Below are positions 9,001 through 40,655 of a DNA stretch of 64,000 bases, in pieces (positions within the stretch are counted from its first letter, which is position 1; every line of letters starts with the position of its first letter). The notes under the pieces are model-generated. The model made no database searches and had not been told where the DNA came from. It saw only the letters and a list, made by a program, of their open reading frames with translations. The stretch covers positions 24,727 to 88,726 of the IMG/VR virus record IMGVR_UViG_3300034198_004780; one strand, written 5' to 3'. Source of the DNA: a virus. The translations under genes were made by a program, and so were the position numbers.

Positions 9001-10506
9001 ACAATTAACGAGCCAGGAACTATTCAGGCGTATTTGTTTAATGGAGTAGAAAAATCGTTCAGTGAAGTAACGGATCAAATAATAGTAACAACGTCGACAA
9101 CTTCTACATTTGTCCTAAGTCAACCTCCAGGTAAAGTAGAACCATTTCATAGTCAAGTAATTGTAACTAAAAATGGATTAAGATTGCAACCTCCAGTTAC
9201 TACCTATTATAAAGTTTCTAATTCTCAATCAGTTTATGATATAAGTCAGTCTATTGTATATCCTGCAGGTTTGATCGATTTACAGCGAATTGAAGTTTAT
9301 GTTAACGGCGCAAAAATACCAGTTGGACAAGATTGGAATCTTGATCAAGGTGCGGGCCAGATTATTTTTAATAATAGTGTTATTTTTGATAATGACGTAA
9401 TAGCAATCGTAGTTAAGCAAGAAAACGATTATCTAATCGAAAATAACAAATTAATTTTAATCAACGCTGTACCAACCGGAACCAAGATAGAAATCACTAC
9501 ATTTACCAATCACGATCCTAATTTTATAAGAACAGAAACATTCAAAGGAGCAGTCAGCAACCAATACACAATGCAACGTCCTATATTAGATTCTGCGTAT
9601 GTATGGGCATCCTATAATGGAGAACCATTAATTGTCAATCTAGACTACACTATTGATATTGATAATCGAACTGTTGTTTTAAGAAATGGCCTGTATCAAG
9701 GTCCAGATGATATTGCGGTAATAACAAGTTTTGCAGATATATCGGCAAAAGAACTAATTGCCTATAGAATCTTTAAAGACATGCTAGGCCGCACTCATTA
9801 CAAACGATTAAGCGCACAAAATTCTACAGAGTTGGTTCAAGATTTAACAATGACTGCAACATCAATTACGGTTCAAGACAGCAGCGTTTTAACTAAACCT
9901 GATCCATTACATAATCTTCCAGGCATAGTGTTGATTGACGGTGAAAGAATAGAATTCTTTACAATTGTAGGCAACACATTAGGACAACTTCGCAGAAGCA
10001 CATTAGGTACAGCACCTAAGAATATTTACACAGCAGGAACTCCTGTAATTGATCAAGGAACGCATCAAACAGTGCCGTTCAAAGAAACTGTGGTTAAATA
10101 CACCACTGCTACAACTACTGTAACAAATGCGTATTCGTTGTTGGATTCGATTAAATTTGATCCTAGTGTAGCATATAGTGATCAAGTAGAAGTCCGCTAT
10201 CAGGGTCGTCCGTTGTTAAAACCTGGCCTTAATACAACCGAACATCAAATTGAATTGGGCTACGACTCTACATCAACGACTACAGTTGATGTTCCTGTTC
10301 CTTATGGATTTACAATTTCATCAACAAGCAGCGTATTAACACTCAACTTTACTCCGGTTGAAGGGGCACGATTAGAGGTTATAAAACGCACATCTAGGTC
10401 TTGGTATAATGTCCCACAGACATTATTAGAAAATACCACAGATCAAGCTAAATTTTTACTAGAAAGGCCGGCCACGTTGCCAGATAAATATCGTTATGGA
10501 CAATAA
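1..10506 (+). CDS. Giant virion structural protein (baseplate/tail-associated), 5'-truncated, >3,500 aa
   Basis: Frame is open from base 1 (VILEYETRVFNN...). Contains FG-GAP-like propeller repeats (~3270-4780), GxGYTxxPxV repeats and W-x6-Y-xxG-xxV aromatic repeats. Followed by fibre genes. Confidence 0.75.
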   Translation, partial: VILEYETRVFNNLKVKYNPDLLDISTVLPGAFRDNSYSQTEVTDLVTADFLRWAGSFGVDYQTNNTLDELNSFTFNYTGSVDTLRKNSLTGYWRSIYKYFYDTDRPHTHPWEMLGFSEEPVWWTNVYGPAPYTSGNLVLWDDLEAGRIVQGDRAGINIAYARPGLSKIIPVNESGVLLSPTDSGLAATPIVNPNDPRRLVVLRSDQIANRWAVGDQGPAETAWRRSSYWPFACQVLMALAYPATYAAQLFDTSRIKKNIAGQYKYGDTKTFLNPSKVLIYRDVIDSQRVLASGYSVFVIEAGISKNINYLNSLKVDLTNLDYRLMVKLGGFASKEKLQVGIDAVDPTSPYPGALIPSEDYNIFFNKSNPIESLEISGLIIQKTGLGYSIRGYDKYKPYFTILKPFASNLDQIERVGGRSESYVTWSQNTTYNIGQIVFYTDRYYRVTQRHNSDVSFNLSYYQSLPYLPTVGGVGVSRRTAFDTSETVVPYGVEYKTIQEVYDLIVGYGQWLESKGFIFEEFNSTLEQILDWKFTAKEFLYWTTQNWDVNSIITLSPFANKLTLRSDQGVVENIMNEFYEYSLLKADGNMFSKNNFTLVRLDGEFSITTMNTQDGMFFARLNLVQKEHAVVMNNFTLFKDVVYAVETGYRQRRVKLKGFRTANWNGDFFSPGFVFDQAVVSDWQKFVDYGIGSVIRFSGKYYSAIKSIIGSSAFDITQWAPLNEKPEAQLLPNFDYKINQFEDFYSLDIDNFDVGQQSMAQHLIGYTPRPYLNYIISDPTAQYKFYQGFIRDKGSKKSLTNLSKASFNNFRSSIDFNEEWAFRIGYYGGYNTYQELETSLESTGFIENPQILQFVENKPVGKSDTVYYKDEADAIIKPENFNINLIFPTIETTLAENNFKLPVAGYVRFDDVTSTAYNKNSILDIANNSLLKVGTTIWLGFREDGEWDVLRLTEVPTIITAVAINVVGESLTISTYYPHQQSVGDLISITRIARDIDRCYVIDEVLGPNQFVVRSTIKSMPPLPNTIRGLMFSFDSSRLRTFDDLSDIKFLDRWALGEKVWVDDDGTGKWVVYKKSNNYQATVYSSIIPKSGQHYASTIVTDDKIVDGRTVTVVVASAPDFQEINLDGDDLRGRVFISVKDSFGEIQSFNNYNLNEDVTYYSTATSSLTNFGQSLAFNATANLVVAGAPATSNVKTAQSSNGFIVNTDSEAIEPFAKQGVVKLSVLNAGYREIDSARVVITTPIPQTGAEFGTSIALSSTSTTNFKLLVGAPGQTVNNVSSAGAVYIYNVVVSTATIAVTTSTQSALLQDSTNPLIANSEFGTSISGNASLTRVAVSAPGYFSNSTTSTGAVFVYDFATTSTPTIITGEDAAIKFGSGDQFGPKVTMTKDGEYLIVASYNALDPDLGIRSGVVDIFKWNSVAKKFKHHQRIGAPISAVNSTFVYGYDISISESGDTLVISSVGNSRTPPPTFDKYTERYSTSTILAKNFESIYVNNLTSDERNSPTTFDSGATTFSSNVINAGTVHVYNRLGTGATKWAHAQSLYSSDIVSNSMFGRSVFATNNSVYVGAPAKLLNGNDGANLGIGQLFSFDKIDNSINSWALYRNQAPSVDLEPITRAITIDSNSEQIQYYIDIIDPIKGKVLGTAAEELRYVTSYDPAIYSLGILGVNVNSNTNWLDEHVGELWWDLSSVKYVWYEQGELEYRKNNWNNIFPGSSIDVYEWVRSEYLPAEWSQLADTADGLTQGVSGQPKFVDNSVISVKQVYNSVSNAFTNVYYYWVKNKVTVPTKVANRNRSAFDIANQIADPLSSGLQFLAVISPTSVMLANIKSVIASEQINLNISFDLINDSANRHTEWLLLEENNANSKPNWLLEKKLIDSLLGHDSLGNPVPDPTLPNKLQYGIEVRPRQSLFVNRREALRNIIEFVNDILSKQLITGQINFANLNAVDDLPNASTYDSIVEDIFTLELISTKSLITAELQPVIDSNGKITNVTIVNAGYGYLTTPTVSINGTGFGAEISLTINSFGSITEVNIINAGTNYTADTEFVVRPYTTVVQTDSNSANKWAVYEWSANKSEWIKIRTQDFNTTLFWKYIDWSATDYDPLKEIISTVSSVYALEALQVLSEGSYVKVLNGGDGRYLILKKTNGAGGSFEPDWDVVYSEKGTIKFLETIWNLSGTLYAWDEIVGFDQTQYDQAPDKEIEFILTALKDDIFISDRKVYWNQLFFKAVRYAMSEQKFLDWAFKTTFISVVNNSGSLDQVATYKLENVKYYEDFLKEIKPYHTKIRKFTEQYTTTELTNTFSTDFDLPSYYNTSTLNFNKVEFGNNLLLQYPWKAWYDNYAYGVSTIELYDSGVGYTETPIVNIVAAAGDTGHSATAVAFISLGRISRIIVTNPGKGYTATPTISINGGGSTVLTPARAYAQLGGSPVRSNSITMKFDRTTGNREIGEQYYTDTFVAQGENLLFNLTWVPVPNKELIVITRNGILQLDDSYTILYSTAKYNPQPNTEYTKQSATLRLEFIPTTGDVIKITYPKSLNLYNAASRIEDYYQPGPGMPGKDLSQLMTGLEYSGLIVDGLPFNFAGGWDAMPYASTGWDNYALENGYTSFVTTQTSTQTFVLPTLITTGTEVNVYVKSMGDSKINGQRIDSTSTTSLVQTLIGLGTGAVDKIEVLIPGIGYSNTYTTFSISAPNTVGGTNAAATMVINSGSVTSFVITNPGSGYTEPPTVTIVESINPNNSTSTITLPAIARAVLKAEFTAVGSTATTSTVTIPDAAFTTTSTLVMFRYADSDGTVLPTDQDSLDAVVSGGNLAYTTALGLSPSEIILDGGSQATRSITGMMDDGFLNSINSHAPEECVPGQIQEAVGISVYTQPSSAAPIITNRKYWADGTTLTYKLGVKPANADSVIAIFNNQLVPSNDYTIDYVNNTFTFNSNTVGTGWLSLTSMQLGTLTLLGTFNTSTSAASAVYTSVVKFADVGSVYVTVNGISTTNYTLSSYRRRARLTINEPGTIQAYLFNGVEKSFSEVTDQIIVTTSTTSTFVLSQPPGKVEPFHSQVIVTKNGLRLQPPVTTYYKVSNSQSVYDISQSIVYPAGLIDLQRIEVYVNGAKIPVGQDWNLDQGAGQIIFNNSVIFDNDVIAIVVKQENDYLIENNKLILINAVPTGTKIEITTFTNHDPNFIRTETFKGAVSNQYTMQRPILDSAYVWASYNGEPLIVNLDYTIDIDNRTVVLRNGLYQGPDDIAVITSFADISAKELIAYRIFKDMLGRTHYKRLSAQNSTELVQDLTMTATSITVQDSSVLTKPDPLHNLPGIVLIDGERIEFFTIVGNTLGQLRRSTLGTAPKNIYTAGTPVIDQGTHQTVPFKETVVKYTTATTTVTNAYSLLDSIKFDPSVAYSDQVEVRYQGRPLLKPGLNTTEHQIELGYDSTSTTTVDVPVPYGFTISSTSSVLTLNFTPVEGARLEVIKRTSRSWYNVPQTLLENTTDQAKFLLERPATLPDKYRYGQ

Positions 10507-22638: not shown

Positions 22639-23121
22639 CTAGTCCTTGCTTACAGAGTTAAGTATCGAACGCATTTCTAATTCGGTCTTAAATGGGCCTT
22701 GAAATGGATAGCGTTCCAGTGTAATCAGTTTGGGACAAAATGATTTAACCCAACCTTTACGGAATTTAATTACATAATACCCAGCACAATACAAGCTCTT
22801 GCTCTTTGAGCTTTTGGCATAAATTGGCAACTTTTTCTTAACGTTCCATAGTGGACTAAACGCTCGTCCGTTCATTGGAAAACCATAAATGTCTTGAGAA
22901 GTTATAGTTGGCCGTGTTGTCTTTTCTTTTTTAATAGCATCTTCTGTGATAGTGATGCCGAATCGTTCTTTAATTTCTGTAAGATCACCTACTTCAATTT
23001 TTTGACCTCGACAAAGAACGCTGTAGCCTTTTTTCTCTTTGCTAAGAGTGCCAACTTTTTCACCATCGGTCTCTAGAATCCAAAATTTATTTGGAATTAA
23101 TACTTTGGCAGTTGTTATCAT
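22639..23121 (-). CDS. Hypothetical protein
   Basis: 160-aa ORF, ATGA overlap with the nuclease gene. Confidence 0.7.
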   Translation of the reverse strand: MITTAKVLIPNKFWILETDGEKVGTLSKEKKGYSVLCRGQKIEVGDLTEIKERFGITITEDAIKKEKTTRPTITSQDIYGFPMNGRAFSPLWNVKKKLPIYAKSSKSKSLYCAGYYVIKFRKGWVKSFCPKLITLERYPFQGPFKTELEMRSILNSVSKD

Positions 23122-24110
23122 TTATGATACCTCGCATTTAATGGATCTGAATAACTCTGTGCCTGTTCACTTACCTTAATCAAATCGTAGGTAGCACAGA
23201 ATTTAATAAGTCTAATACCCACTTGACTGATATTCTTTTCTTTAGCAATTTCTGCTTTAATAGTATCTTCAATCCACATTTTTGGTTCTGCTGGATGTGC
23301 CTTAAGATCGCATAAGGTAACATTGCGAGCGTAGTCATCTAACACACGATGCTCTTTACCTTCATGATCGGTCCAACGCTGCAGCATCATGTTATTCCAT
23401 GCCCAGCCTTTAGTGTTGCGATCAGCATAGGCCTCTTGCAATCCTACTTTGTTTTTTGTGCCTTTTGTGCGGACACCCGGATACGCTGAGAAGACGTTAT
23501 CGCTAGTATCCCCTCGCATGCATTTTTCAAAGAGAAGCCATTCAGGATCCGGCGCTGGTTTTTCTTCATTAGTTTTTTTATCTTTAACTCTTTTGCCTTT
23601 TTCATCAAAGTACCCTTCGTGTGTAGTAGTAACTCCAGTAACGCCATTATACTGTTTTACGTTAGGTGCAATAAGTTGTGCAAAGTCGCCATCTGTACTA
23701 ATGATAACATGATTGTCATCGGGATGTGCAGCAACCCAACCTGCAATTAGATCATCTGCTTCTAGATTAGCGTGTTGTAGAACTGTACAGTTTGTCTTTT
23801 CGTGTATGTAATCTTTAAAATCATCAAAGGTTTCCCAAAAGATTTTATCTTCTTCTGCATCTCTAGGACTCAGCGCATCACGAGCAACTTGTCGATTACG
23901 CTTGTATGGCTCGTAGTAATCCTTACGCCATGAGCGCCCCTCTAAACAAAAGATCACATGACTACCGTCAAAGTCTTTCCACGCTTTGCGTACAGAGTTT
24001 AGAATTACATGTAGACTCATTCCTACCTTTTCGCTAATGTCGCCACGTACTACATGACGAGCTCTAAAAAAAACATTTGCAGTATCGATTAATAAGTAAG
24101 TTTTATTCAT
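23118..24110 (-). CDS. rnh: T4 RNase H-like 5'-3' exonuclease / flap nuclease
   Basis: LLIDTAN, SWRK...YKRNR, LEADD, STDGDF, GDTSDNV motifs. Confidence 0.9.
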   Translation of the reverse strand: MNKTYLLIDTANVFFRARHVVRGDISEKVGMSLHVILNSVRKAWKDFDGSHVIFCLEGRSWRKDYYEPYKRNRQVARDALSPRDAEEDKIFWETFDDFKDYIHEKTNCTVLQHANLEADDLIAGWVAAHPDDNHVIISTDGDFAQLIAPNVKQYNGVTGVTTTHEGYFDEKGKRVKDKKTNEEKPAPDPEWLLFEKCMRGDTSDNVFSAYPGVRTKGTKNKVGLQEAYADRNTKGWAWNNMMLQRWTDHEGKEHRVLDDYARNVTLCDLKAHPAEPKMWIEDTIKAEIAKEKNISQVGIRLIKFCATYDLIKVSEQAQSYSDPLNARYHK

Positions 24111-24223: not shown

Positions 24224-24826
24224 ATGACTATTTACACCCTCTACATAAAGACCCATAATAAAACCGGTCTTAAATACCTTGGTCAAACTACATCAAAAGA
24301 TCCACACAAATATCCTGGATCTGGATTATATTGGAAAGCTCATTTGAATAAACATGGATATGATTATAACACGGAAATCCTACACGAATGCCAATCTAAA
24401 GAAGAATTAAAAGAACGAGGTTTATATTACAGTAATCTTTGGAATATAGTAGAAAGTAATAACTGGGCTAATCTTAAAGAAGAACAAGGCGACGGTGGTA
24501 GGCAAAGTGAAGCAGTTAGAAAACGAATTAGTGAAACAGGCAAAGGTAGAATACCTTGGAACAAAGGCAAACAAATATGGTCCGAAGAAGAAAAGATCAA
24601 AATCGGAGAACGCAATAAAGCACGTGGACCGCAATCTGCAGAAACTATTGCTAAACGTGTAGAAAAAACTACAGGTAAAAAAAGAACTGATGAACAAAAA
24701 CAGCGATCTTCTGATGCACAAAAAGGAAGAGAATTAACTGAAGAGCACAAGGCTAAATTAAAAGCGGCGGCACAAAATAGAATTGCACCGCCGTGGAACA
24801 AGGGACTTAAAAAAAAGTCTAGCTAA
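24224..24826 (+). mobile_element. Free-standing GIY-YIG homing endonuclease with NUMOD3-like repeats
   Basis: LYIKTH...KYLGQT...YPGSG...E...WANL nuclease domain; basic helical repeats and PWNKG twice; antisense to flanking operon. Confidence 0.85.
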
Positions 24827-25691: not shown

Positions 25692-26564
25692 TTAAGTTCC
25701 CCACTCATTCTTGAAAAGCGGCACCTGAAGCCTATCACTATATCTTAGGCCATTTTTCATAGCTATCAACGCCACTGCCTTATTATTCAGAGCGTATACA
25801 CTTTCAACGCCTCCGACCGGCATTAAGTAGACATGACCTGTAAATCCAGCGGCACGATATTCACTTGCGGCTTTAAGAGCATAATCACAATCTTCTTCAG
25901 TAGCAATAACAAATTTAAGATAGGTAGTACCTACTTGTTCATACTCACATACAACTTCTGGGCGAATAGCTTCTTCCCACTTTTCACCACTGCAAGGAAG
26001 TTTAGCACTGACACTAAATGTAATCTCACGATCAATGCCATAAGCGTTGCGCCATTTAGTTAGATAGTCTTTAAATTCTGGAGTTAGCTTTTGAGTACCA
26101 TTTGTTTCAAAAGTAATCTCTTTTAATCCCTTCATTTTAAGATTGTCAAGCAGGTCTGGATAAGCACGTTGCCAGCCTAGCAAAGGTTCACCGCCTGTAA
26201 TAACCAAATGTTCATCTAACCATTCATTGTGCGGTAGAATTTCCATAATGCGATCTGCAAGTTCATTTGAACTTTCTTTAATAACAAATTTTTTAAATTC
26301 GGGATATATAGAACTATAACTATCGCATCCAGTTTTTGCCAACGGTAAATCTTTAAATGTTTTATATTGATCAATATTTTTAATAAACTCAACAACTTCT
26401 GGATTATGCGTTTCGTCAACACCGAGAATGTCTTTTTCGTATCTTCCAAAATTTTTACAACGGAAGTTGCAACCAAACATACGAAGGAACACACTCGGGA
26501 CACCCATATATCGACCTTCTCCTTGTATGCTGTAAAATAGCTCTGTATAATGTAATTTTGACAT
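25692..26564 (-). CDS. queE: 7-carboxy-7-deazaguanine (CDG) synthase, radical SAM
   Basis: ELFYSIQGEG...FLRMFGCNFRC...GCDS, VITGGEP, ETNGT, VYLMP. Confidence 0.88.
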   Translation of the reverse strand: MSKLHYTELFYSIQGEGRYMGVPSVFLRMFGCNFRCKNFGRYEKDILGVDETHNPEVVEFIKNIDQYKTFKDLPLAKTGCDSYSSIYPEFKKFVIKESSNELADRIMEILPHNEWLDEHLVITGGEPLLGWQRAYPDLLDNLKMKGLKEITFETNGTQKLTPEFKDYLTKWRNAYGIDREITFSVSAKLPCSGEKWEEAIRPEVVCEYEQVGTTYLKFVIATEEDCDYALKAASEYRAAGFTGHVYLMPVGGVESVYALNNKAVALIAMKNGLRYSDRLQVPLFKNEWGT

Positions 26565-29339: not shown

Positions 29340-29891
29340 TTATTTCATCCAGAAGTTTTCATAAGGGAAGTCGACCCAGACATCATCCTCAGCTTTATTA
29401 ACTTCAATGCCCCAGTAGTCCATTTTAACATCGCACTTGCTGGCAAGATTATCTACAACTACTGCAAAACGTACATTGTTATTCCAAATGTTATTCCAAC
29501 GCGGATCTGACGGTAAACAACCACTGCGCCAATCTTCCATAATCCAATTAAGTGTGGCGCCACTGTCGTTGATGTCATCTACTATGAGAATATTTTTGCC
29601 TCTCGTGCTACGTGGAGTATCACCGTCGTAGGTGTCACCGGTATATCCAAACGCATCTTCCGCCATCCAAAGATTGCTTTCTGGCCCAAGTTCAGAGGCA
29701 TTATCTCGTAGACTAACACCCAAAGCAAACATAGGTACATTGAAATAATGACTGATCATAACAGCAGGCAATAACCCACCACGGGTAAGACCTACTACAT
29801 AGTCGGGACGCCATTCGCTGACGGCAATATCTCTACAGATTTTACCCATTTGAAATTGAAACTCTTGCCAACTGATTTTATTTTTGTTCAT
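29340..29891 (-). CDS. Type I phosphoribosyltransferase (xanthine/guanine PRT-like)
   Basis: VVGLTRGGLLPA, PRPP-binding ILIVDDINDSGATL, WVDFPYE. Confidence 0.85.
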   Translation of the reverse strand: MNKNKISWQEFQFQMGKICRDIAVSEWRPDYVVGLTRGGLLPAVMISHYFNVPMFALGVSLRDNASELGPESNLWMAEDAFGYTGDTYDGDTPRSTRGKNILIVDDINDSGATLNWIMEDWRSGCLPSDPRWNNIWNNNVRFAVVVDNLASKCDVKMDYWGIEVNKAEDDVWVDFPYENFWMK

Positions 29892-31514: not shown

Positions 31515-31843
31515 AACTTTAGTGTTTCTATTGTGATGATCTTGCCTAGCTCCTTGCCGATATCCTTGTCATCCGTGATAACATGTAGACTATTATGGTG
31601 ACGATCCTTCTGCCGGTCATAAAAACTAGTTTCAATAACAGTTCCACCCGATGCTTTAAAGACTTTAAAATTAATACCGCGATCGTTGTCTATTGATAGG
31701 CTAGGCATTACAGCAACAGCATAACTGTCTTGTTCTACTATATCTTCGCCACTATCATTAAGCCAATCGCGAAACCTTTGTTTCCACGTTTTTTTATAAT
31801 TAAAGTTGCCTGGGTTAATGCTTACATTATATGGTGATCTCAT
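31511..31843 (-). CDS. Hypothetical protein
   Basis: 110-aa ORF, ATGA overlap with folE. Confidence 0.65.
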   Translation of the reverse strand: MRSPYNVSINPGNFNYKKTWKQRFRDWLNDSGEDIVEQDSYAVAVMPSLSIDNDRGINFKVFKASGGTVIETSFYDRQKDRHHNSLHVITDDKDIGKELGKIITIETLKL

Positions 31844-32607
31844 TTACCTGCGTGTCCTTGCTGTAGTTTAATGTTATCAAAAAACTCTTTTTTAGTATCC
31901 ATGTCGCTTTGAAATGCTCCAGTTAATACTGTAGTTTGAGTCATGGAACTACCTGCCATAATTCCCCTATTGGTACAGCAACCGTGTTCGGCCTGTATAT
32001 AAACTGCAATATTCTTGCTTCCTGTAGCGTTGCTTATTTCTCTTGCGATGTCGTTACACAGTTCTTCCTGTAAAGTGCCACGGCGAGCACACCACTGAGC
32101 AATACGAGTGTACTTGCTGAGACCAATAAGCCTGTCGGCAGCAATAATACCAATATAAGCAACACCCACCACAGGCTGGTGATGATGACTACACATGCTA
32201 CGAAGCTCACTACGCACAACCAACATACCTTTGTATCCATCATCTACCTCATTAGGAAAACTTGTTGCATCGGGCGCTTCATCATACCGCCCTGCCATAA
32301 TTTCGTTAAAATACATCTTAGCTAGTCGTTTAGCAGTACCTTGACTATTAGGATCATTTTCACGGTCAATAAGTAATGCATCAAGAACGCCTTCAAATGC
32401 TATAGTTGCGTTTGCAATTAGTTCATCTCTATGTCCAACTACATATTCGCTAATATTATCTCCGGCCCAAAAGCGTTTCTTATTGCGTCGCATATTGAAG
32501 CGAATAGCATCTGCTAGGTTACCTTCTTTATAATCTTTGTTGTCATCGCCTTGCATGTCTGCACCAGCAAGGACGTTTTTTAAATCTTCTGTTGTAAATG
32601 TTGTCAA
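31840..32607 (-). CDS. folE: GTP cyclohydrolase I
   Basis: SMCSHH, IGLSKYTR, LQEEL, AEHGCCTNRG; TTG start with GGAG SD. Confidence 0.93.
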   Translation of the reverse strand: MTTFTTEDLKNVLAGADMQGDDNKDYKEGNLADAIRFNMRRNKKRFWAGDNISEYVVGHRDELIANATIAFEGVLDALLIDRENDPNSQGTAKRLAKMYFNEIMAGRYDEAPDATSFPNEVDDGYKGMLVVRSELRSMCSHHHQPVVGVAYIGIIAADRLIGLSKYTRIAQWCARRGTLQEELCNDIAREISNATGSKNIAVYIQAEHGCCTNRGIMAGSSMTQTTVLTGAFQSDMDTKKEFFDNIKLQQGHAGK

Positions 32608-32648: not shown

Positions 32649-33752
32649 CTATTTTATATTCTTTAGCAGATTATTACAATTAAAAAATTGCTCAGTTAAA
32701 TCTTGTGCTTGTTTATTTAGGCTAGGTAATAACTTACTATAATTCTCCATGTGCTGGATAATTTTATTACATAGTTCTGGGCGATGTGCGGTATATGACT
32801 CAAATGATTCTGTCCATTCACTTGGATATTTAAAAGCGTCATAATACATTTCAGTATATGATAAACGATCCGGAACCATTGGAATAGCATCTACAATAGC
32901 ACCCTCATAACAACTAATGCCCAGTGTTTCCTGTAGGTTAGCTGAAAACACCAACTTGGCCTCACCTAGTAAATTATGGTATTCATTCTTTGACAATTGT
33001 TGATCCTGACAAACAACGAACTCATATTGTGGTAAATGTTCTTTTAGATCACGGAATATTTCAACTTGTTTCTCTGGAGCAATACGATGTGGAAATAATA
33101 TTAGATCACGCTTGGGCATATTTTTATATGCGGCAAGGGTACCATCCATATATTCCATAGGCCACCCTGTGCGTACAATCTTGTCTGTAAGCGTACCTGC
33201 ACGTAACTCTGCTAGCTCGTCATCAAACCAAGGATTCTCACTAATGGGTCCATTTTGTAATAGATTGGTAAAAAACATTTCAATATGAAACTCAGTAGCA
33301 AAGTAGTTGTAGTCAAATGCGTGATAAAAACTCTTCTCAGCGTATCTAACCCAAGGCTTATCACCTACAAGACGTCCTAAAAAATCTTGAGGATCATAAC
33401 TACCAGCATGCCACAGACCGTGAGTCGTTACAGGAATCTGTAACAGTTCACTCATATATTTTAGGTTGATGATGCCAGGGTGCCAAGCATCAGTAAAAAT
33501 AAAGTGATCGCCAGGGCTAATTGCTCCGGAGCAAAATAGCCTGCCCATTTTTTCAACTTGACTAGACTTATATATATTGGTGCCACCAAAATTAAGGAAA
33601 GCGCCAGGAGTAGTGGCTGTAGGGATGTCCGTAGGGCCAGAGATAATTTCGACATGATGTCCTTTTTTTCGTAAGAGACTAGGTACATGAGTTTTCCATT
33701 CACCTGTGTACCTTGTTTCAACACTTTCTAAGTCGACTAAAAATATAGTCAT
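32649..33752 (-). CDS. GT-B fold glycosyltransferase
   Basis: FPHRIAPEKQ and QETLGISCYEG (ExxGxxxxE) donor-binding motifs. Confidence 0.8.
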   Translation of the reverse strand: MTIFLVDLESVETRYTGEWKTHVPSLLRKKGHHVEIISGPTDIPTATTPGAFLNFGGTNIYKSSQVEKMGRLFCSGAISPGDHFIFTDAWHPGIINLKYMSELLQIPVTTHGLWHAGSYDPQDFLGRLVGDKPWVRYAEKSFYHAFDYNYFATEFHIEMFFTNLLQNGPISENPWFDDELAELRAGTLTDKIVRTGWPMEYMDGTLAAYKNMPKRDLILFPHRIAPEKQVEIFRDLKEHLPQYEFVVCQDQQLSKNEYHNLLGEAKLVFSANLQETLGISCYEGAIVDAIPMVPDRLSYTEMYYDAFKYPSEWTESFESYTAHRPELCNKIIQHMENYSKLLPSLNKQAQDLTEQFFNCNNLLKNIK

Positions 33753-33991: not shown

Positions 33992-34369
33992 TTAAGGTTT
34001 ATATTCAACGATTCCATCGGATTCGCCGTCTTCGGATACAACTACTTCATAATATCTCTCGCCGTACTTTGGCAGGAGATGATTATTTAGGATATCTGTA
34101 GCAATCATTTCACATGACTTGTGATTTTGATTCCCAGATTGAATAAATTCTTGTAATGCCCACTTGACCAAGAAAAACTCTAGTTCACGATCTAAGTGTG
34201 TAACACCAATCTTTACATCAACTTTGAACATATGACGATGTTCATTTTCTAAGAATTTAATACGAGGATCAATAGTTCCAGCATGTGGATAGTAGTGAAA
34301 TCCTTCAAACTCTGTACGTACTTTAATAAAAGTACTTGTGCAAGGTCTTATGTCTTGTTTAATATTCAT
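33992..34369 (-). CDS. QueD-like T-fold protein, HRH subtype (possible DpdL-like CDG decarboxylase)
   Basis: EGFH...LENEHRHMF...SCEMIA...VSEDGE; lacks the CxxxHGH motif of canonical QueD. Confidence 0.65.
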   Translation of the reverse strand: MNIKQDIRPCTSTFIKVRTEFEGFHYYPHAGTIDPRIKFLENEHRHMFKVDVKIGVTHLDRELEFFLVKWALQEFIQSGNQNHKSCEMIATDILNNHLLPKYGERYYEVVVSEDGESDGIVEYKP

Positions 34370-34893
34370 TTAATAATCTCATCTTTACCATATTCGTCCC
34401 AGCTTGTAAACTGATCACGACCTGTTAGGCTGTGAAGTGTATGACACCAAACTCCTGGATTTGTTGCCTTGAAGTCTTTGTCGTCTAGTTTAATTGTAGC
34501 ATTATATCCTAGCTGTGTCAAGTGGGGAATCTTTACAGATAGTTGAGGAATAAATTTCCTTTGTTCAACTAGTGAGCTTTCCAAAAGACCTTCAACCAAA
34601 CTAACGTCTAAATCTAAGGTACACCACAAGTCATGTTCCAAGCAATCCAAAATCATCATCTCCCAATCACGCCAGCCGTCACCATCATTAGTTTCTAATT
34701 TTGGAAAACTTTGATTGGCACCAAAATAAACGTGTGTACAATCGTTATTCTTGACCAAATTAAGTATAACGCTGGCATCTTGGATGCCTACTACAAATAG
34801 TGTACGCATACCAAACGCAGGAGTCTTTTCAATTTCGGTACCAACAAAGAATGTTACTTCTTCGCTGACGCCTGTGTCGTAATCACGTTTCAT
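34366..34893 (-). CDS. Hypothetical protein in the deazaguanine operon
   Basis: 175 aa, ATGA-coupled to both neighbours. Confidence 0.7.
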   Translation of the reverse strand: MKRDYDTGVSEEVTFFVGTEIEKTPAFGMRTLFVVGIQDASVILNLVKNNDCTHVYFGANQSFPKLETNDGDGWRDWEMMILDCLEHDLWCTLDLDVSLVEGLLESSLVEQRKFIPQLSVKIPHLTQLGYNATIKLDDKDFKATNPGVWCHTLHSLTGRDQFTSWDEYGKDEIIK

Positions 34894-36524
34894 TCTGCTA
34901 TACTTTCCTCAAGAGCTCGTAAGTCGTCATCATCTGGATTCTCAAGATCAACTTCTGATGAATTAGTAATTTGTTCAAGTTCAAATAAACTACCAAAAGT
35001 ATTTGCCGCAGGACCGCCTTGTAATCGAGCACCTTCTAATGATTTTAAAAACGGGCCAGCTTGCTCGATCATTTCAAATGCTTCTTCTTTGGTAGTAGTA
35101 TTAAACAGGTCTTCGATAAAAGAACTAAAATACAGAATGTTACGTGGAACCCAGTCTGAATACTCATCGCTCATGTCTTGTGCTTTAACTTTCTTCCAAT
35201 GTTTCCATGAAAGTTTATCTTTAGTTTTAGCAATCTCAATGTCCATCAACTGTTGAGCACGTTGAACTGCACGAATATGACATTCAACGTTATGACCCAT
35301 CATAAGTGCATAGGCAAAACTATCCCACGATGTTTTGTTAGGAATCTTACCTAACTTGTTAAGTCTTGGAACTTCGACATAATGTTCCGGATTCAAATGA
35401 TCAAACTTTACACCTTCGCCTAACTGTGCTTGTGTCTTTGGAGTTCCGAGATTATAGTAGGCAATATCGCCCATCGTTAATCTGCGTCCAATTTCTGATT
35501 CGAATGGGAACGGAATGTCTGATCCTGAAAGTGCTTTGTTATCTGGGGCTTTGTCCATAATAACACTCCACCGCTTGGGCGTGTGGACTGCTGTTGTATA
35601 GACGAGTCCGTGTGCTGTTGCGATGAACGGTGAGGCGCAGTCAAAAGATACGGTAAAGTTTTCATTAATATGCTTTCTAATTTGTCGTTGAATTAAAGTC
35701 AAGTAGCATGACCAATCTAATTGGGCAGTGCCCAAGAAGTGCATCCAGTCTTTACCTTTGAGTAAATTATCTTCACGTAATGTAACTAGGCGCTTTAATG
35801 TGATATCCATCTTACACATATTAGCACCGCCCATTGCCCAACCTTCTGCTTCCTTACCAGCATATTTGCCTTTAGGATCGGAGAATTCTTTTACACCTTG
35901 ATACCACTTTTCAGCGGTATCCCAATCACCACCTTGTAGAACGTTAAGCCATTTGGTCTGACCTAAACGATTTTCTAAGAAGTAGTCATTGTTGAAGCGT
36001 GTCTTATCCAAACAATCTTCAAATGTTTTTAATCCAGTTTTAGGTGAGTGAATGTGATCACAGGCCCATGTTGGCACGTCCAACATCATTGACCAATCTG
36101 CTGTAAGCTCAAGCCACTCGAGAATCTTTTGACGAGTCTTGTTGGCTTCCTTGCCTTCAAAGTTTAACCAGTCAAATTTGAGAACACCCTTACCAATCTG
36201 ATATCCACCTGAGTCCCCCAAGATCATGGTGTTGCTACGATCTCGTTGTTGAATCATAGACTCTTGTTCCATGCTCTTGACAAGATCCAACTGAGCGTGA
36301 CCTGCTGAATACAGACCATATTTGTAGGTAAAGTAGCCGTCTTCTGGATTTAGAAAGTTCATGCCTTCTACTCCGCGATCAAAGCCTACAGGAATGCGAT
36401 CATCTGCGATAAACTTTTCTAATCGTTGTTTAGCAATATATGTGGAATAGAAAGAGGAGATTGCTGGCAAATATATTGCATAATCTTTCTGTAGTGGGGT
36501 TAGGTTGACTGGCGGAGTCTTCAT
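34890..36524 (-). CDS. dpdA: TGT-fold transglycosylase (DpdA-like DNA 7-deazaguanine insertase)
   Basis: GDSGGYQ, MLDVP, NVLQG, GWAMGG, HFLG, SFDCASP motifs; clustered with folE and queE. Confidence 0.75.
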   Translation of the reverse strand: MKTPPVNLTPLQKDYAIYLPAISSFYSTYIAKQRLEKFIADDRIPVGFDRGVEGMNFLNPEDGYFTYKYGLYSAGHAQLDLVKSMEQESMIQQRDRSNTMILGDSGGYQIGKGVLKFDWLNFEGKEANKTRQKILEWLELTADWSMMLDVPTWACDHIHSPKTGLKTFEDCLDKTRFNNDYFLENRLGQTKWLNVLQGGDWDTAEKWYQGVKEFSDPKGKYAGKEAEGWAMGGANMCKMDITLKRLVTLREDNLLKGKDWMHFLGTAQLDWSCYLTLIQRQIRKHINENFTVSFDCASPFIATAHGLVYTTAVHTPKRWSVIMDKAPDNKALSGSDIPFPFESEIGRRLTMGDIAYYNLGTPKTQAQLGEGVKFDHLNPEHYVEVPRLNKLGKIPNKTSWDSFAYALMMGHNVECHIRAVQRAQQLMDIEIAKTKDKLSWKHWKKVKAQDMSDEYSDWVPRNILYFSSFIEDLFNTTTKEEAFEMIEQAGPFLKSLEGARLQGGPAANTFGSLFELEQITNSSEVDLENPDDDDLRALEESIAE

Positions 36525-36527
36525 AGA

Positions 36528-37262
36528 TTATGCCTGTGCTGGAATGATATACTTGTAAGTAGCAATACCACTATCTAATTCAATTTGCATAGCACCGTCA
36601 TTACTAATACTCAACTTAGTGTTGTTTGCATCTGCAATTTTTAAGATACTTAATACTTGACTAACCGGCCATGTCCAAGACTTGCTCAATGTTCCTGCAA
36701 CTCCTGTGGCAAATACAAATTCACCACCGTGGGTTGATTGATCACCAAATACAAATTTAAGATTACCATTTTCAGTCTTAGTTAGGAATGTTGCGTGTTC
36801 TGCATTGGCGGCCGCCTGAAAGTTGAAACGCTGGATAGCGGCAACTGTGGGACTAACTTCAACGTGCCAATTAACACCGCGGAATTTAACTGTTTTAAGT
36901 TTCTCGTTGATAATTTCTGTGTTCATAAAACGATAATCGTTTTTAAAATCACCTACGTCATTTTCAAAGTGGATACCAACTGGAACTGTATCACCATTGC
37001 GATCAGCGGTAACAATGTCAAGTTTAGCATTTTCTTTGTAAACTGGGCAGTCTAAATGAATCTTCAACTTGTTAAGTTGTGGCATACCAAAGACGCCCTT
37101 CATTTCCGGTACTGCTGTGTTTACTTCTCCGTACATGATTACAGAACGGTCATCAGCCATACTATCAATCTTAGTAGCGGAGTCATCACCTGTAATTTTA
37201 ACGGTATCTAGGAATCCTAGATTATGTGTATGTCCTACAATGTCTTTAAGCAAATCAAGCAT
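36528..37262 (-). CDS. Sliding clamp (gp45/PCNA-like)
   Basis: 244 aa, directly after the polymerase, ends YKYIIPAQA; clamp loader is also in the window. Confidence 0.7.
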   Translation of the reverse strand: MLDLLKDIVGHTHNLGFLDTVKITGDDSATKIDSMADDRSVIMYGEVNTAVPEMKGVFGMPQLNKLKIHLDCPVYKENAKLDIVTADRNGDTVPVGIHFENDVGDFKNDYRFMNTEIINEKLKTVKFRGVNWHVEVSPTVAAIQRFNFQAAANAEHATFLTKTENGNLKFVFGDQSTHGGEFVFATGVAGTLSKSWTWPVSQVLSILKIADANNTKLSISNDGAMQIELDSGIATYKYIIPAQA

Positions 37263-37280
37263 ATAATTCTCCTTTGTTAT

Positions 37281-37309
37281 ATTATATTTAGGTTTTTGGT
37301 CTTTGTCAA
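37281..37309 (-). promoter_or_regulatory. Sigma70-type promoter for the clamp-dpdA operon
   Basis: TTGACA-17 nt-TATAAT, then AAGGAG SD. Confidence 0.85.
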
Positions 37310-37315
37310 GTAATT

Positions 37316-39985
37316 TTATTCAAAGCTGAATAAATTACCAAAATTATTGTCTTGCGTTGTGGATTCCAAATCCCACTCTAGTACACCGATAAGATTATCT
37401 AGTTTATTGTTGATAATGGCAGTTTCCATAGCACTATCATCAAAAGGCAATTCCTTAAACCACTGTGGCAAGCGCATCTCATCGACCGGATAAGCAACTG
37501 AAGTATAGCCCAAGGGATTCTCCTTTACCTTACACACAATTACTTTCATACCATCAACAACCTGTTGACTGTATTTGTCACCATTCATGCGCTTGAGAGT
37601 GTTCCAATTGATACTTGCTCTAACGTGACCTGGCATATTGGCTTTACCGGCTTTCTTTTCCTTGGCTTCGTATTCGGCAATATTGTTGGCACGTTTTGGG
37701 CTTCCTTTCTCCCAACCCGGCCGACTCTTAAACTCGGTGCGGAACTGACTGATACGATCGAGGATTTCAGTTTCGCCAGAACCATTTAATACCTTGGTTA
37801 GAAGTTCACTTAAAAAGTTCTGCATGAACTCTGGAGTATCTGAACGTTTCAAGTCTAGACCCATGGCTTTGATCTTACCTGGGCTGTCTTCTGTATCCTG
37901 TCTCTTACCATCTTTGTCGTAGTACAGTACAGCATAGCGTTTCTTGGTAATAAACAGGCCTTTAATAGCAACAATCTCACGACCTGCTTTGATAACTTCT
38001 CCTCGCGACTTTGGACAGTGAAAATCATCCAGCATAAACTGCGGGAATGTATCATTGACTTCTTCAGAGATCTGATCATATAACTGTACTACTGATTCTT
38101 TATTCCACGGAATGAGTCCCTTGTTGATATCATTCTTCAGCACAGGCCAAGCAGTAAAATATACAGAGTCAGTATCACCGTAGATGATGCTCTTACCTGT
38201 GTAGTCATACTCACCTGCAATGTATTCATTTACCTTTGCAGCCATATGACGGGCAATGCGGCGTCCTGTAAGAGTGGTTGATTGACCAATACGCTTGTCA
38301 AAGAAACGACAACCAGGATTAAGAATAGCACCATACAGACTGTTGAGGTTAATCTTTTTAACCAATTGACGCTTGTCCCAATATTCTTCTTCAATTTTAT
38401 TCTCCGCTTTAATACATTCTTTTAATTTGGCCTGCATGTCTTTACGTTCACTATACCATCGTTTCAGCAATCCAGGAATAACACCTTCTTTTTCGTAACT
38501 AAAGATAGTACCGTTAGCTGATAACATCCAAGGTTGATTACTGTCAAAAAATACATCATGTAATTGAGCACCACTTAGTACATCAGTCGACCCGTCTTCC
38601 CAATCAACAATAATATCGTGACTGATATCTTTACTCATGACAAGTTCATATTCATTACTGCCGAACTTGCCTTCCCATGCTGACGCAAAGCTACTGCCCT
38701 TGGCCATTTTAGCTTCAATTTCATCTTTGGTATAGTCTTGACGCAACTGTCCAACAATGGTCTCAGGACCCATATTAAGTGCTCTAATGGCACTGGGATA
38801 TAGTGAGTTGATGTCCATGCTTCCAATCCAGTCGTGAAGACCTTTCTTTGGATACGCTACATATGCACCCGCTGCTTGATTATCACCGCGGTCATCCATT
38901 CTAGGCCGGCTTGGAACAATAAGACCCTTGTGATGGGCTTCATTGATAATGGCCTGTTCAGTAACAGCCACAGCACCCATTGTTGTTTGGATCAATACAG
39001 TATTCTCATGAGCGACGGTATTAGCAAGGTCGATAAACTTCAGTTTCTTATCCAGATCATCAAGTAGTTTACAGTCATTAATGTTGTATTCAATAAACTT
39101 ACGGAAGTCATTGTTGTACAACTGATCAAGTGTGCCTTCGTATTGTGTCTTACGTTGACCCAACTCATATTCAGCAATAGCATCTAGTCGATATGAATGA
39201 CGTTCTTCGTAGGTGTACTTGCGATACAGTTCTAGTGAGTCAACGTGTACACGACCAATCAAGTCATATGTAACAGCAGCCTTGCCATACTTTTCATATT
39301 CACGTTTTTTAGGGAACTGTCCTAGCAGACAAAAACGACGAGTGTCATCTTTGCTTAGTGTTTTAGTAACACGATTAACTGTGTAGGGGATATCAAATCC
39401 TTCTGAGTTCCAACCTGACAATACATCAGCATCTTCAATAATGTTTAGAAACGCTTCTAACATATCTCCTTCATTGTCAAACAATACTGTATTGGGAAAC
39501 TCTTTAACCTGTTCTTGCGCCTGCTCCATGGTTAGTGTCTTTGGCGGAACTGCAAAACATACCATAGTTTCCATCCACTGTAGATAAACAGCAATAGCAG
39601 TGATTGGCATGAACGCATCTTCTGGTGATGCATAACCACGTTCTGGGTCGAAGTCGACCTCAATATCGAAAAAGGCTACGTTTAGTTTTGGAGCATCTTT
39701 GCCTAGGTAATTATCTTCTAGACAACGAAATACAGGGTTGATATCACTTTCAAATAACTTTTGACCTGAATGTATCTTTTGTTCTTTAGCAAATTCTTTC
39801 CAGTTCTTACAAGTGACTCTTGTCAACTGATCCCCATAAATTGACGTGTACTTGCCCTTTTGATCAGGGTAATAAAACAAGTAACGTGCTGGGTATTCTT
39901 GAAATATACGACCCTTCTTCGGGTCACGTTCTACAACGGTGACGATATCTGTCTCCCGATCCCATCGGGCATCTACATAACTCAT
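37316..39985 (-). CDS. Family B DNA polymerase (gp43-like)
   Basis: Exo DIEVD, GWNSEGFD, YNIND; Pol DINSLYP, KINLNSLYG, YGDTDS, KKRY. Confidence 0.97.
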   Translation of the reverse strand: MSYVDARWDRETDIVTVVERDPKKGRIFQEYPARYLFYYPDQKGKYTSIYGDQLTRVTCKNWKEFAKEQKIHSGQKLFESDINPVFRCLEDNYLGKDAPKLNVAFFDIEVDFDPERGYASPEDAFMPITAIAVYLQWMETMVCFAVPPKTLTMEQAQEQVKEFPNTVLFDNEGDMLEAFLNIIEDADVLSGWNSEGFDIPYTVNRVTKTLSKDDTRRFCLLGQFPKKREYEKYGKAAVTYDLIGRVHVDSLELYRKYTYEERHSYRLDAIAEYELGQRKTQYEGTLDQLYNNDFRKFIEYNINDCKLLDDLDKKLKFIDLANTVAHENTVLIQTTMGAVAVTEQAIINEAHHKGLIVPSRPRMDDRGDNQAAGAYVAYPKKGLHDWIGSMDINSLYPSAIRALNMGPETIVGQLRQDYTKDEIEAKMAKGSSFASAWEGKFGSNEYELVMSKDISHDIIVDWEDGSTDVLSGAQLHDVFFDSNQPWMLSANGTIFSYEKEGVIPGLLKRWYSERKDMQAKLKECIKAENKIEEEYWDKRQLVKKINLNSLYGAILNPGCRFFDKRIGQSTTLTGRRIARHMAAKVNEYIAGEYDYTGKSIIYGDTDSVYFTAWPVLKNDINKGLIPWNKESVVQLYDQISEEVNDTFPQFMLDDFHCPKSRGEVIKAGREIVAIKGLFITKKRYAVLYYDKDGKRQDTEDSPGKIKAMGLDLKRSDTPEFMQNFLSELLTKVLNGSGETEILDRISQFRTEFKSRPGWEKGSPKRANNIAEYEAKEKKAGKANMPGHVRASINWNTLKRMNGDKYSQQVVDGMKVIVCKVKENPLGYTSVAYPVDEMRLPQWFKELPFDDSAMETAIINNKLDNLIGVLEWDLESTTQDNNFGNLFSFE

Positions 39986-39990
39986 ACTCT

Positions 39991-40046
39991 CTCCTACCGC
40001 TTATGGCCGGTTAACCTTCACTTAGCGATTTATGGCTCGCAGGACC
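39991..40046 (-). promoter_or_regulatory. Twin-hairpin putative translational operator of the polymerase
   Basis: GCGA-GCCAUAAA-UCGC and ACCG-GCCAUAAG-CGGU immediately before the AGGAG SD. Confidence 0.65.
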
Positions 40047-40050
40047 GTCT

Positions 40051-40353
40051 TCATGAAATATTTATGATTCTAATCAACGCAACTGTATCAATTGCGACTA
40101 GCAACAGATAGTTAGACAACATACCAACGCTACCGCGGCTCCACGATGCCCAGCCAAATATGGCACATTGTAAAATAAAAGTTGGGTAAAGTATCAACCA
40201 CGGCGGATTGGGAACAGTAATGGCTAAGGCAACTGCACATCCTATGCTCATCAACCAGGCAAGGATTTCTAAAACAAATCTTAAAGGGTATTCTTTAAAA
40301 TCTCTATTAGCCCATTGCCAAGTATCAGTAATACCTTTTTTAAGTTGAATCAT
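40051..40353 (-). CDS. Small three-TM membrane protein
   Basis: Three hydrophobic segments; pattern similar to 25428-25691. Confidence 0.65.
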   Translation of the reverse strand: MIQLKKGITDTWQWANRDFKEYPLRFVLEILAWLMSIGCAVALAITVPNPPWLILYPTFILQCAIFGWASWSRGSVGMLSNYLLLVAIDTVALIRIINIS

Positions 40354-40655
40354 TAGTCGTCGTTGCGGTTTGGATTAATTGTATCGTTGTGTATTTCGCG
40401 AGTAGCGTGACCTGCAATGTCAACAATAGTTTCTAAATCATCAAACTCGTTAAACACACGATCCCAATCACCCTTTTGTGCAACTTTAATTGCTTTCTTA
40501 ATGGTGCTGGGCTTTACTTCCAATTCTTCTGCTACTGCTTTTATGGTATCGTTGAGACCTTCTGTAAGGTCTTGAACTTCTTGCAGCACAGTCACACCCT
40601 CAGAAATCAACTGACGGATCTTTGCTTTTTCTGGATCGCCGAATACTTTGCTCAT
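40353..40655 (-). CDS. Small helical DNA-binding protein (T4 DsbA-like)
   Basis: 100 aa, IKAVAEELEVKPSTIKKAIK HTH-like segment; family by resemblance only. Confidence 0.5.
   Translation of the reverse strand: MSKVFGDPEKAKIRQLISEGVTVLQEVQDLTEGLNDTIKAVAEELEVKPSTIKKAIKVAQKGDWDRVFNEFDDLETIVDIAGHATREIHNDTINPNRNDD

Follow-up and report, generated by a model that had tools for sequence, protein, structure and literature searches.

In the phages T4 and RB69, the hydrophobic C-terminal tail of the DNA polymerase gp43 binds the sliding clamp gp45, which has further clients in gp33, gp55 and a loop of the T4 ligase. The gp43 of the T4-type phage RB14 ends in ..ASLDFLFG. In eukaryotes, proteins with a PIP box bind the clamp PCNA, and one of them is the maintenance DNA methyltransferase DNMT1. 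Here, we describe a locus of the IMG/VR virus record IMGVR_UViG_3300034198_004780, an 88.7-kb contig from a large uncultured phage, of which the final 64 kb (positions 24,727 to 88,726) were analysed and are referred to as the window. In the window, the gene of a predicted PCNA-fold sliding clamp stands between the gene of a family-B DNA polymerase of the gp43 type and the gene of a 544-residue protein that resembles DpdA, a tRNA-guanine transglycosylase (TGT)-fold enzyme that inserts 7-deazaguanine bases into DNA. This DpdA-like enzyme carries in its tail a peptide similar to the C-terminus of the polymerase, and it probably hooks onto the phage sliding clamp and modifies DNA during copying.

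Like the T4/RB69 system, the locus combines a PCNA-fold clamp, an RFC-type loader and a short hydrophobic-aromatic peptide on a flexible end, which is also present on the cognate family-B polymerase. It differs in that the putative client is a DNA base-exchange enzyme, in that the motif is internal in most clades, where about 30 acidic residues follow it, and in that the clamp has no Pfam match to the gp45 or PCNA families. The likeness to DNMT1 lies in a DNA-modifying enzyme that is predicted to be tied to the replication clamp, with new DNA marked soon after synthesis, and the likeness to PCNA clients in a predicted docking site composed of the inter-domain connecting loop and the C-terminal tail of the clamp. 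Unlike a PIP box, the motif has no conserved glutamine and is built around the core F-x-x-L-F; unlike DNMT1, the enzyme belongs to a phage and would exchange bases rather than methylate them. The mechanism would be that of known clamp clients, and what would be new is the client.

According to the main text of Hutinet et al. (2023; PMC10516641), in which the word "clamp" does not occur, all 7-deazaguanine insertions are argued to be post-replicative. The window protein is similar to the phage DpdA1 to DpdA4 and the bacterial DpdA treated there in its TGT fold, in its place beside 7-deazaguanine synthesis genes and in its closeness to the polymerase gene. The idea proposed here, of a phage DNA-hypermodifying enzyme that is attached to the sliding clamp and acts on DNA during its replication, has one precedent in an earlier in vitro claim that the T4 alpha-glucosyltransferase associates with gp45 (cited in bioRxiv 10.64898/2025.12.06.692756). 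In the portions of that preprint drawn on here no shared tail motif is described for the glucosyltransferase, whereas the present case is built on a conserved polymerase-like peptide. In the literature on DpdA or deazaguanine and sliding clamps, on jumbo-phage DpdA and on clamp-binding motifs, judged largely by title and abstract, no DNA base-exchange enzyme was found as a clamp client.

The shared peptide and its conservation

Translation of the minus strand confirms both peptides that the earlier note had read from this DNA, NNFGNLFSFE (37319-37348) and NTFGSLFELE (34974-35003); the plus strand gives stops at both sites. The first is the true C-terminus of the polymerase open reading frame (ORF), and the second corresponds to residues 508-517 of the 544-residue protein, where it is followed by 27 mostly acidic residues. 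They are identical at six of ten positions (N, F, G, L, F, E). The pattern [FY]xx[LFM]Fx[FWLIVM] has three matches among the 87 crude genes (28,192 amino acids) of the 88.7-kb contig, namely in the polymerase, in the TGT-like protein and in a baseplate wedge protein encoded outside the window. Taken on this contig alone, the shared peptide is a weak case, for which chance is not negligible, and it goes beyond chance because it is conserved across relatives, not because of the single match.

Residues 502-523 of the enzyme model, which include the peptide, have a pLDDT below 50, i.e., they are predicted to be disordered. An alignment of 30 sequences with identities as low as 30% has an invariant F514 and at least 90% conservation of F510 and L513, amid surroundings that vary freely. 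An invariant core in a variable tail that is disordered in the model is the signature of a short linear motif, here a hydrophobic-aromatic one that the cognate polymerase has in common with the enzyme.

The family to which the enzyme belongs is abundant in metagenomes, with 5426 protein clusters at E up to 0.001 among 8000 candidates and with 870 representatives at 50% identity. For a comparison of loci, 170 viral contigs were gathered (80 at 79-90% identity, 10 around the representative P0253 and 80 at 44-56% identity to the representative P0259), and probes of viral contigs with the divergent members P0277 and P0341 gave no match. Together with the loci of three cultured phages, PA5oct, Vibrio phage 2.275.O and Sinorhizobium phage Phosso, they make up 173 loci. 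An iterated profile search found the DpdA-like gene in every one of the 173, the polymerase in 162 of them and the clamp in 168; where the genes of a locus were listed, they follow each other on one strand in the order polymerase, clamp, DpdA-like. Of the 160 complete polymerases, 159 have the pattern F-x-x-[LF]-F within their last 14 residues (80 of 81 unique tails), and the sole miss reads ..LDDLFDF. Among the 166 complete DpdA-like proteins, 145 have it within their last 60 residues, or 154 if a relaxed pattern is admitted (110 and 118 of the 130 unique tails, respectively). As controls, other ORFs of the same loci with 150 amino acids or more have it in 14 of 1360 unique tails, and the DpdA-like bodies have it nowhere in 65,925 residues. 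The earlier note, which had proposed that the enzyme rides the clamp, staked the idea on conservation of the motif in DpdA homologs; it is conserved in them, and it tracks the polymerase tail.

In most of these proteins the motif is not the end of the chain. An acidic extension of about 30 residues, with a mean of 12.1 acidic and 1.7 basic residues, follows it in 112 of the 130 unique tails, and a second conserved element, L..LE, in what is predicted to be a helix, is found in 98 of these 112 long tails, compared with 12 of 1306 control tails. In 14 of the 130 the motif is itself the tail end.

The hook marks part of the family rather than all of it, because just 49 of the 109 full-length representatives at 50% identity carry an LF-type tail motif (17 of them in the strict form). 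Relatives in bacteria and archaea were sought in one genome per species of 185,579 prokaryotic species, with motif-less family members as queries, and 80 loci were found, mostly in Alpha- and Betaproteobacteria, 78 of them with complete tails. A clamp gene is nearby in seven of the 78, on contigs of metagenome-assembled genomes that have a phage-like look, and six of the seven also have PolB. The strict motif is present in six of these seven loci and a variant in the seventh, compared with none of the 70 loci that have no clamp within reach (59 of which extend at least 5 kb upstream); one further motif-positive protein is encoded on a 2.7-kb contig, which is too short to judge the presence of a clamp. 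Where the surroundings can be judged, the motif occurs only in the company of a clamp, and by these sequence comparisons it is the clamp-associated branch of the family that has the hook.

The two tails also change in parallel between distant clades. In PA5oct, the polymerase ends in ..HFDSLFGW and the DpdA-like tail has ..SFNSLFDVD; in Vibrio phage 2.275.O, the corresponding sequences are ..NNTDLFDW and ..NNNDLFGW, both at the very C-terminus; and in the P0253 clade they are ..DLFDF and ..NLFDF[SDN]. Contig L177 pairs ..KAMKLFNY with ..KAKSLFEF, and L179 pairs ..FVDDLFD with ..AVHDIFE, the variant of the seventh clamp-bearing locus mentioned above. FF replaces LF in both proteins of L101, L107, L123, L131 and L154, and the tail pairs of L105, L163 and L168 are discordant. 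Clamp residue 241, a proline in 148 of 158 loci, contacts F510 and L513 in the co-folded model described below and is replaced in about five lineages, most of which have FF or LM motifs. In a paired phylogenetic test on a FastTree phylogeny of the 130 unique DpdA-like bodies, clamp residue 241 against the DpdA-like motif type gave five contrasts, on average 3.7 in the same direction and none in the opposite one (median p 0.125); residue 241 against the polymerase motif type gave 2.7 in the same direction and none opposite (p 0.25); and the motif types of polymerase and DpdA-like protein against each other gave six contrasts, 3.4 in the same direction and none opposite (p 0.25). The direction of the co-variation is consistent, in a test that is under-powered.

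Predicted folds and docking

The 244-residue product of the gene at 36528-37262 was modelled, as a monomer only, at a pLDDT of 94.6 (alignment A2, 45 diverse homologs), and the top PDB matches listed by Foldseek are all PCNA (E 2e-11 to 7e-10, TM-score 0.66-0.72). The model has the two-domain clamp fold at the usual size of about 245 residues, and by this predicted structure the protein is a PCNA-fold sliding clamp, the identity on which the proposal of a clamp-riding enzyme depended. The protein has no Pfam match at all and is placed by PHROGs in phrog_12062, "unknown function", and searches of PDB sequences with profiles of the 544- and 244-residue families (alignments A1 and A2) returned chance-level matches only. 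Its context is replicative, with the PolB gene adjoining and a gene for an RFC-type clamp loader in the same window.

The 544-residue protein was modelled at a pLDDT of 90.9 (67 homologs). The 50 top PDB matches listed by Foldseek are all TGTs, with E-values of about 1e-6, and VIA-align superposes about 305 residues on TGTs at a Z-score of 18-19 and an rmsd of 4.5 Å, in agreement with a TGT-type barrel. Among the matches in BFVD are the "tRNA guanine transglycosylase" of Achromobacter phage Motura (E 1.5e-10), a protein of Vibrio phage nt-1 and M4SLA5 of Cellulophaga phage phiST (E 1.9e-3). Seven residues, S73, D104, S105, G107 (within GDSGGYQ), D149, H262 and D295, are invariant in 67 diverse homologs of 26-50% identity, and D104, D149 and D295 are putative equivalents of the catalytic or substrate aspartates of TGTs. 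The TGT fold that the earlier note had assigned is borne out by the predicted structure, and Pfam and PHROGs do not confirm it.

The relation to the named DpdA proteins is distant. No match above threshold to PF01702, TIGR00432 or TIGR00449 was obtained for the protein, and none of the 67 family members matches the Dpd models of PADLOC-DB, a library whose inclusion of a DpdA model is not confirmed. A tblastn search of 50,697 phage records with the window protein and two distant family members found none of the named DpdA phages and only 13 records, of which 11 are PA5oct-like and the other two are Vibrio phage 2.275.O and Phosso. Profile comparison by hhalign with gp042 of phage phi19:2, a 259-residue protein which gene order suggests to be a DpdA3 ortholog and which is about half the size of the window protein, gives a probability of 84.4% (E 7.1e-6) over just 87 of the 259 columns. 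Because this profile link is faint and the protein is separated at the BLAST level from the named phage DpdA groups, it is called DpdA-like and put in no named subfamily. The sequence and model data point to a putative phage DNA guanine transglycosylase of the TGT/DpdA superfamily.

Docking was predicted by co-folding the clamp monomer (alignment A2) with residues 495-544 of the enzyme (alignment A3). The pair has an ipSAE of 0.73 (0.72, 0.73 and 0.74 in the individual runs), compared with 0.00 for the best of three controls, and the mark that it passes is reached by 58 of 80 solved complexes and by two of 110 mismatched pairs. The runs share at least 49% of their contacts, and the pLDDT of the partner is at least 49. 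On the clamp, the confident interface is composed of residues 39-40, 42, 123-130 (the inter-domain loop), 222-224, 239 and 241-244 (the conserved C-terminal ..IPAQ); on the enzyme, it comprises residues 507-517, that is, exactly the motif. In the model, the peptide sits in the canonical pocket under the inter-domain connecting loop, and the acidic extension is not placed on the clamp. These values express model confidence rather than a measurement, and the co-fold supports, but does not show, binding of the DpdA-like tail to the clamp.

The gene order is compatible with joint expression. The genes of polymerase, clamp and enzyme all lie on the minus strand, the last being next but one after the first, and its ATG follows the stop codon of the clamp gene after 3 nt (TAA tct ATG), as had been noted before. 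In the 53-nt gap between the polymerase and clamp genes there is a perfect sigma-70 consensus (TTGACA-17-TATAAT) followed by AGGAG, and no terminator-like site was found across 34300-40400. Co-transcription of the clamp and DpdA-like genes is plausible because of the 3-nt spacing, the consensus promoter and AGGAG ahead of the clamp gene, and the lack of a terminator-like site. Of the earlier statement that the two genes are adjacent and share a promoter, the spacing holds as read and the shared promoter is plausible only, from a consensus match and the absence of a terminator-like site. A near-identity DNA search of cultured phages with the segment 34000-40000 gave no match.

Weighing the proposed clamp-tethered transglycosylase

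The surroundings of the enzyme gene suggest which base might be inserted. The LxxxHRHxF sequence of the QueD-like protein encoded nearby is described as the signature of the proposed CDG decarboxylase DpdL (Hutinet et al., 2023; PMC10516641). Canonical QueD and QueC signatures were not detected on the 88.7-kb contig, which covers only part of a genome with relatives of up to about 350 kb, and from these two observations together the inserted base may be 7-deazaguanine or a derivative of it. The homologs in Vibrio phage 2.275.O and PA5oct are encoded near QueF, QueC-type, FolE and QueE genes. PA5oct is credited with a "deazaguanine synthesis/incorporation system" (Iyer et al., 2021; PMC7824862), and its DNA resists several restriction enzymes, which its authors read as modified G (PMC12191111); the portions of the latter preprint drawn on here name QueE and a PTPS and no transglycosylase.

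The best explanation of the data as a whole, and a likely one, is a clamp-tethered DNA guanine transglycosylase with a polymerase-type docking peptide. The transglycosylase would carry, after a disordered linker, a tail copy of the C-terminal peptide of the polymerase, with the core F-x-x-L-F-x-[FL], and this peptide would bind physically in the pocket under the inter-domain connecting loop of the PCNA-type clamp of the phage. The clamp, encoded between polymerase and transglycosylase and probably co-transcribed with the latter, would be put on DNA at phage replication forks by the RFC-type loader and would carry the enzyme along or hold it on duplex DNA that has just been made, at the fork or behind it. 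The substrate would be DNA rather than tRNA, and the exchange of guanines for a 7-deazaguanine base would be efficient and would favour phage DNA, by which phage and host DNA could be told apart. The clamp-riding proposal of the earlier note is supported because the motif is conserved, the product of 36528-37262 has a PCNA fold and the co-fold puts the motif in the clamp pocket.

Several observations weigh against this explanation. Regarding the enzyme, the TM-scores of its model to TGTs are modest (0.33-0.52), and no sequence library names it, as the window protein has no match in Pfam, PHROGs or PADLOC; among the 67 family members, three touch PF01702 (best E 0.0045), nine TIGR00432 (best E 2.7e-6) and eight tgt_general, and a profile search of PDB with the DpdA-like alignment found no TGT. 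Regarding the hook, 21 of the 166 DpdA-like tails do not have the strict pattern, though most carry variants, the motif occurs once in the baseplate protein of the same contig, and in Phosso the DpdA-like gene (7998-9647 of the locus) lies far from the polymerase-clamp pair and its product ends only in ..VEGLF. The co-variation of tails and clamp is not significant (p 0.125-0.25), with too few independent contrasts. Because so many complexes of PCNA with peptides have been solved, the good score of the co-fold may stem from the predictor's familiarity with them and reflect likeness rather than binding, and it was built on a clamp monomer rather than a ring, with custom alignments. The clamp homolog in PA5oct (6912-7658 of the locus) is annotated as "structural protein, ESI-MS/MS", i.e., it was detected in virions, which is odd for a clamp. 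Finally, the 2025 preprint on the T4 alpha-glucosyltransferase, in the portions drawn on here, reports no co-purification of that enzyme with gp45, either in vitro or in vivo (bioRxiv 10.64898/2025.12.06.692756).

Other explanations share some of these data. That the resemblance of the two peptides is chance or compositional, with no shared function, would suit the mere six identical residues out of ten and the third, probably meaningless, match in the baseplate protein, and it is scarcely credible in view of a motif that 145 of 166 homologs but 14 of 1360 control sequences have in their tails and that is absent from 65,925 body residues, that shifts together with the polymerase tail between distant clades and that sits in a disordered, otherwise variable tail. 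Alternatively, the peptide might be a docking signal for another replisome partner, such as a single-stranded DNA-binding protein, a helicase or primase, or the clamp loader, so that the enzyme would be linked to the replisome and not tethered to the clamp. Sequence conservation alone names no partner, and the acidic extension, which has a second conserved element, may point to others. The motif, however, tracks the clamp gene (six of seven relatives with a clamp, none of 70 without), most loci have the DpdA-like gene immediately after the clamp gene, exactly residues 507-517 are put in the canonical clamp pocket by a co-fold whose controls are at 0.00, and T4-type polymerase tails of this kind are generally known to bind the clamp, which together leave a different partner quite improbable.

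The identity of the enzyme could be at fault rather than that of its partner. It might dock on the clamp and yet be no 7-deazaguanine-inserting DpdA, but rather a DNA glycosylase or repair enzyme with the TGT fold, or else a tRNA enzyme that also has another role, a possibility in keeping with the absence of any DpdA or TGT family model at threshold on the window protein, with a profile link to the inferred DpdA3 of 84% probability over just 87 columns and with the lack of a canonical QueD/QueC signature on the 88.7-kb contig. It is made improbable by the invariant DSGG motif and two further aspartates, by structural neighbours that include phage proteins of TGT/DpdA type, and by the genetic context: the gene clusters with FolE and with a protein bearing the DpdL signature, a radical-SAM protein is encoded 8 kb away, and the relatives in Vibrio phage 2.275.O and PA5oct lie beside QueF, QueC-type and QueE genes, in the latter case in a phage whose DNA behaves as G-modified.

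The clamp-tethered transglycosylase might be part of something wider, namely a very large and mostly uncultured group of big phages in which hypermodification is wired into the replisome, with a docking peptide that co-evolves with the polymerase tail and the clamp pocket (Pro241 being lost together with the change from LF to FF) and with the conserved acidic C-terminal helix as a second switch, by which the enzyme would be barred from DNA before it has joined a loaded clamp. In this combined form the idea is rather unlikely. If it were true, only DNA replicated by the phage machinery would be modified, which would explain near-complete modification and self/non-self marking without sequence specificity.

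A polymerase-type clamp hook would offer a concrete mechanism by which a base-exchange enzyme could act on much of the guanine content of a 300-kb genome while sparing or ignoring host DNA. If the hook works as proposed, a DNA-hypermodifying enzyme would join the clamp clients of phages, for which the sole earlier claim, that of the T4 alpha-glucosyltransferase, is now disputed. The mechanism would apply widely because the family, with its 5426 clusters, is very common in metagenomes, and PA5oct, a cultivable relative with DNA that already behaves as G-modified, makes the hook directly testable.

Features of the window and minor observations

The features of the locus and of the surrounding genes are given in Table 1.

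Table 1. Features discussed in the text, in positions of the 64-kb window.
Feature	Position	Strand	Evidence
Family-B (T4 gp43-type) DNA polymerase, 889 amino acids	37316-39985	minus	Pfam DNA_pol_B E 5.9e-37; exonuclease domain E 8.4e-19; phrog_262 E 4.9e-201
C-terminal peptide of the polymerase, NNFGNLFSFE, putative clamp-docking-type tail	37319-37348	minus	translation
Promoter-like site before the clamp gene, 12/12 TTGACA-17-TATAAT, then AGGAG	37309-37281	minus	consensus match only
PCNA-fold sliding clamp, 244 amino acids	36528-37262	minus	predicted structure
TGT-fold DpdA-like transglycosylase, 544 amino acids	34890-36524	minus	predicted structure
NTFGSLFELE, residues 508-517, putative internal clamp-docking-type peptide in a disordered linker	34974-35003	minus	translation, model
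Acidic 27-residue extension, predicted helix at the end with second conserved element L..LE	34893-34973	minus	model, tail alignment
QueD-like T-fold protein, 125 amino acids, LxxxHRHxF in place of CxxxHGH	33992-34369	minus	regex match; phrog_17812
367-residue protein in the deazaguanine gene cluster	32649-33752	minus	no Pfam family
GTP cyclohydrolase I (FolE)	31840-32607	minus	Pfam E 7.8e-40
Phosphoribosyltransferase in the deazaguanine gene cluster	29340-29891	minus	Pfam E 2.5e-13
Radical-SAM protein, candidate QueE	25692-26564	minus	weak Pfam Fer4_12 and Radical_SAM, E about 1e-4
RFC/gp44-type clamp-loader ATPase, 306 amino acids	57018-57938	minus	Pfam AAA E 9.3e-18, DNA_pol3_delta2 E 2.8e-13, Rad17 E 1.2e-4

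Some other proteins of the contig were considered with regard to their tails. The flap nuclease and a 175-residue protein of the window have no such motif there, and the homologs of the former, a flap endonuclease/RNase H (23118-24110, minus strand), share a conserved end, ..SYAEPLNARY.., which is unlike that of the polymerase. FF is found near the ends of the 367-residue protein (..EQFFNC..) and of FolE (..KEFFDN..), which were not counted as further clients because their whole tails are conserved in the manner of folded helices, not as a motif in a variable linker; homologs of the 367-residue protein with a complete C-terminus are present in 93 of the 173 loci. The baseplate wedge protein, which is gp6-like (phrog_10646) and encoded upstream of the window (contig positions 18242-21649, plus strand), has PFGSLFEIA 42 residues from its end, and its close likeness to the DpdA-like motif is probably due to chance.

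About 70 motif-less relatives of the enzyme are encoded on large chromosomal contigs of Rhizobium, Sphingomonas, the Roseobacter group, Polynucleobacter and others, with no clamp or PolB gene nearby. In Phosso, the DpdA-like gene adjoins primase and helicase genes, and a 240-residue "virion structural protein" encoded beside it (7211-7933 of the locus) was rejected as a clamp at an hhalign probability of 0.1; the real Phosso clamp adjoins the Phosso PolB, and this pair is followed by glycosylase, glycosyltransferase and FolE genes in an arrangement that resembles the window. In PA5oct (4009-5691 of the locus) and in contig L177 (7152-8180), the polymerase gene is split by an insert resembling a homing endonuclease or intein, and the C-terminal piece retains the docking tail.

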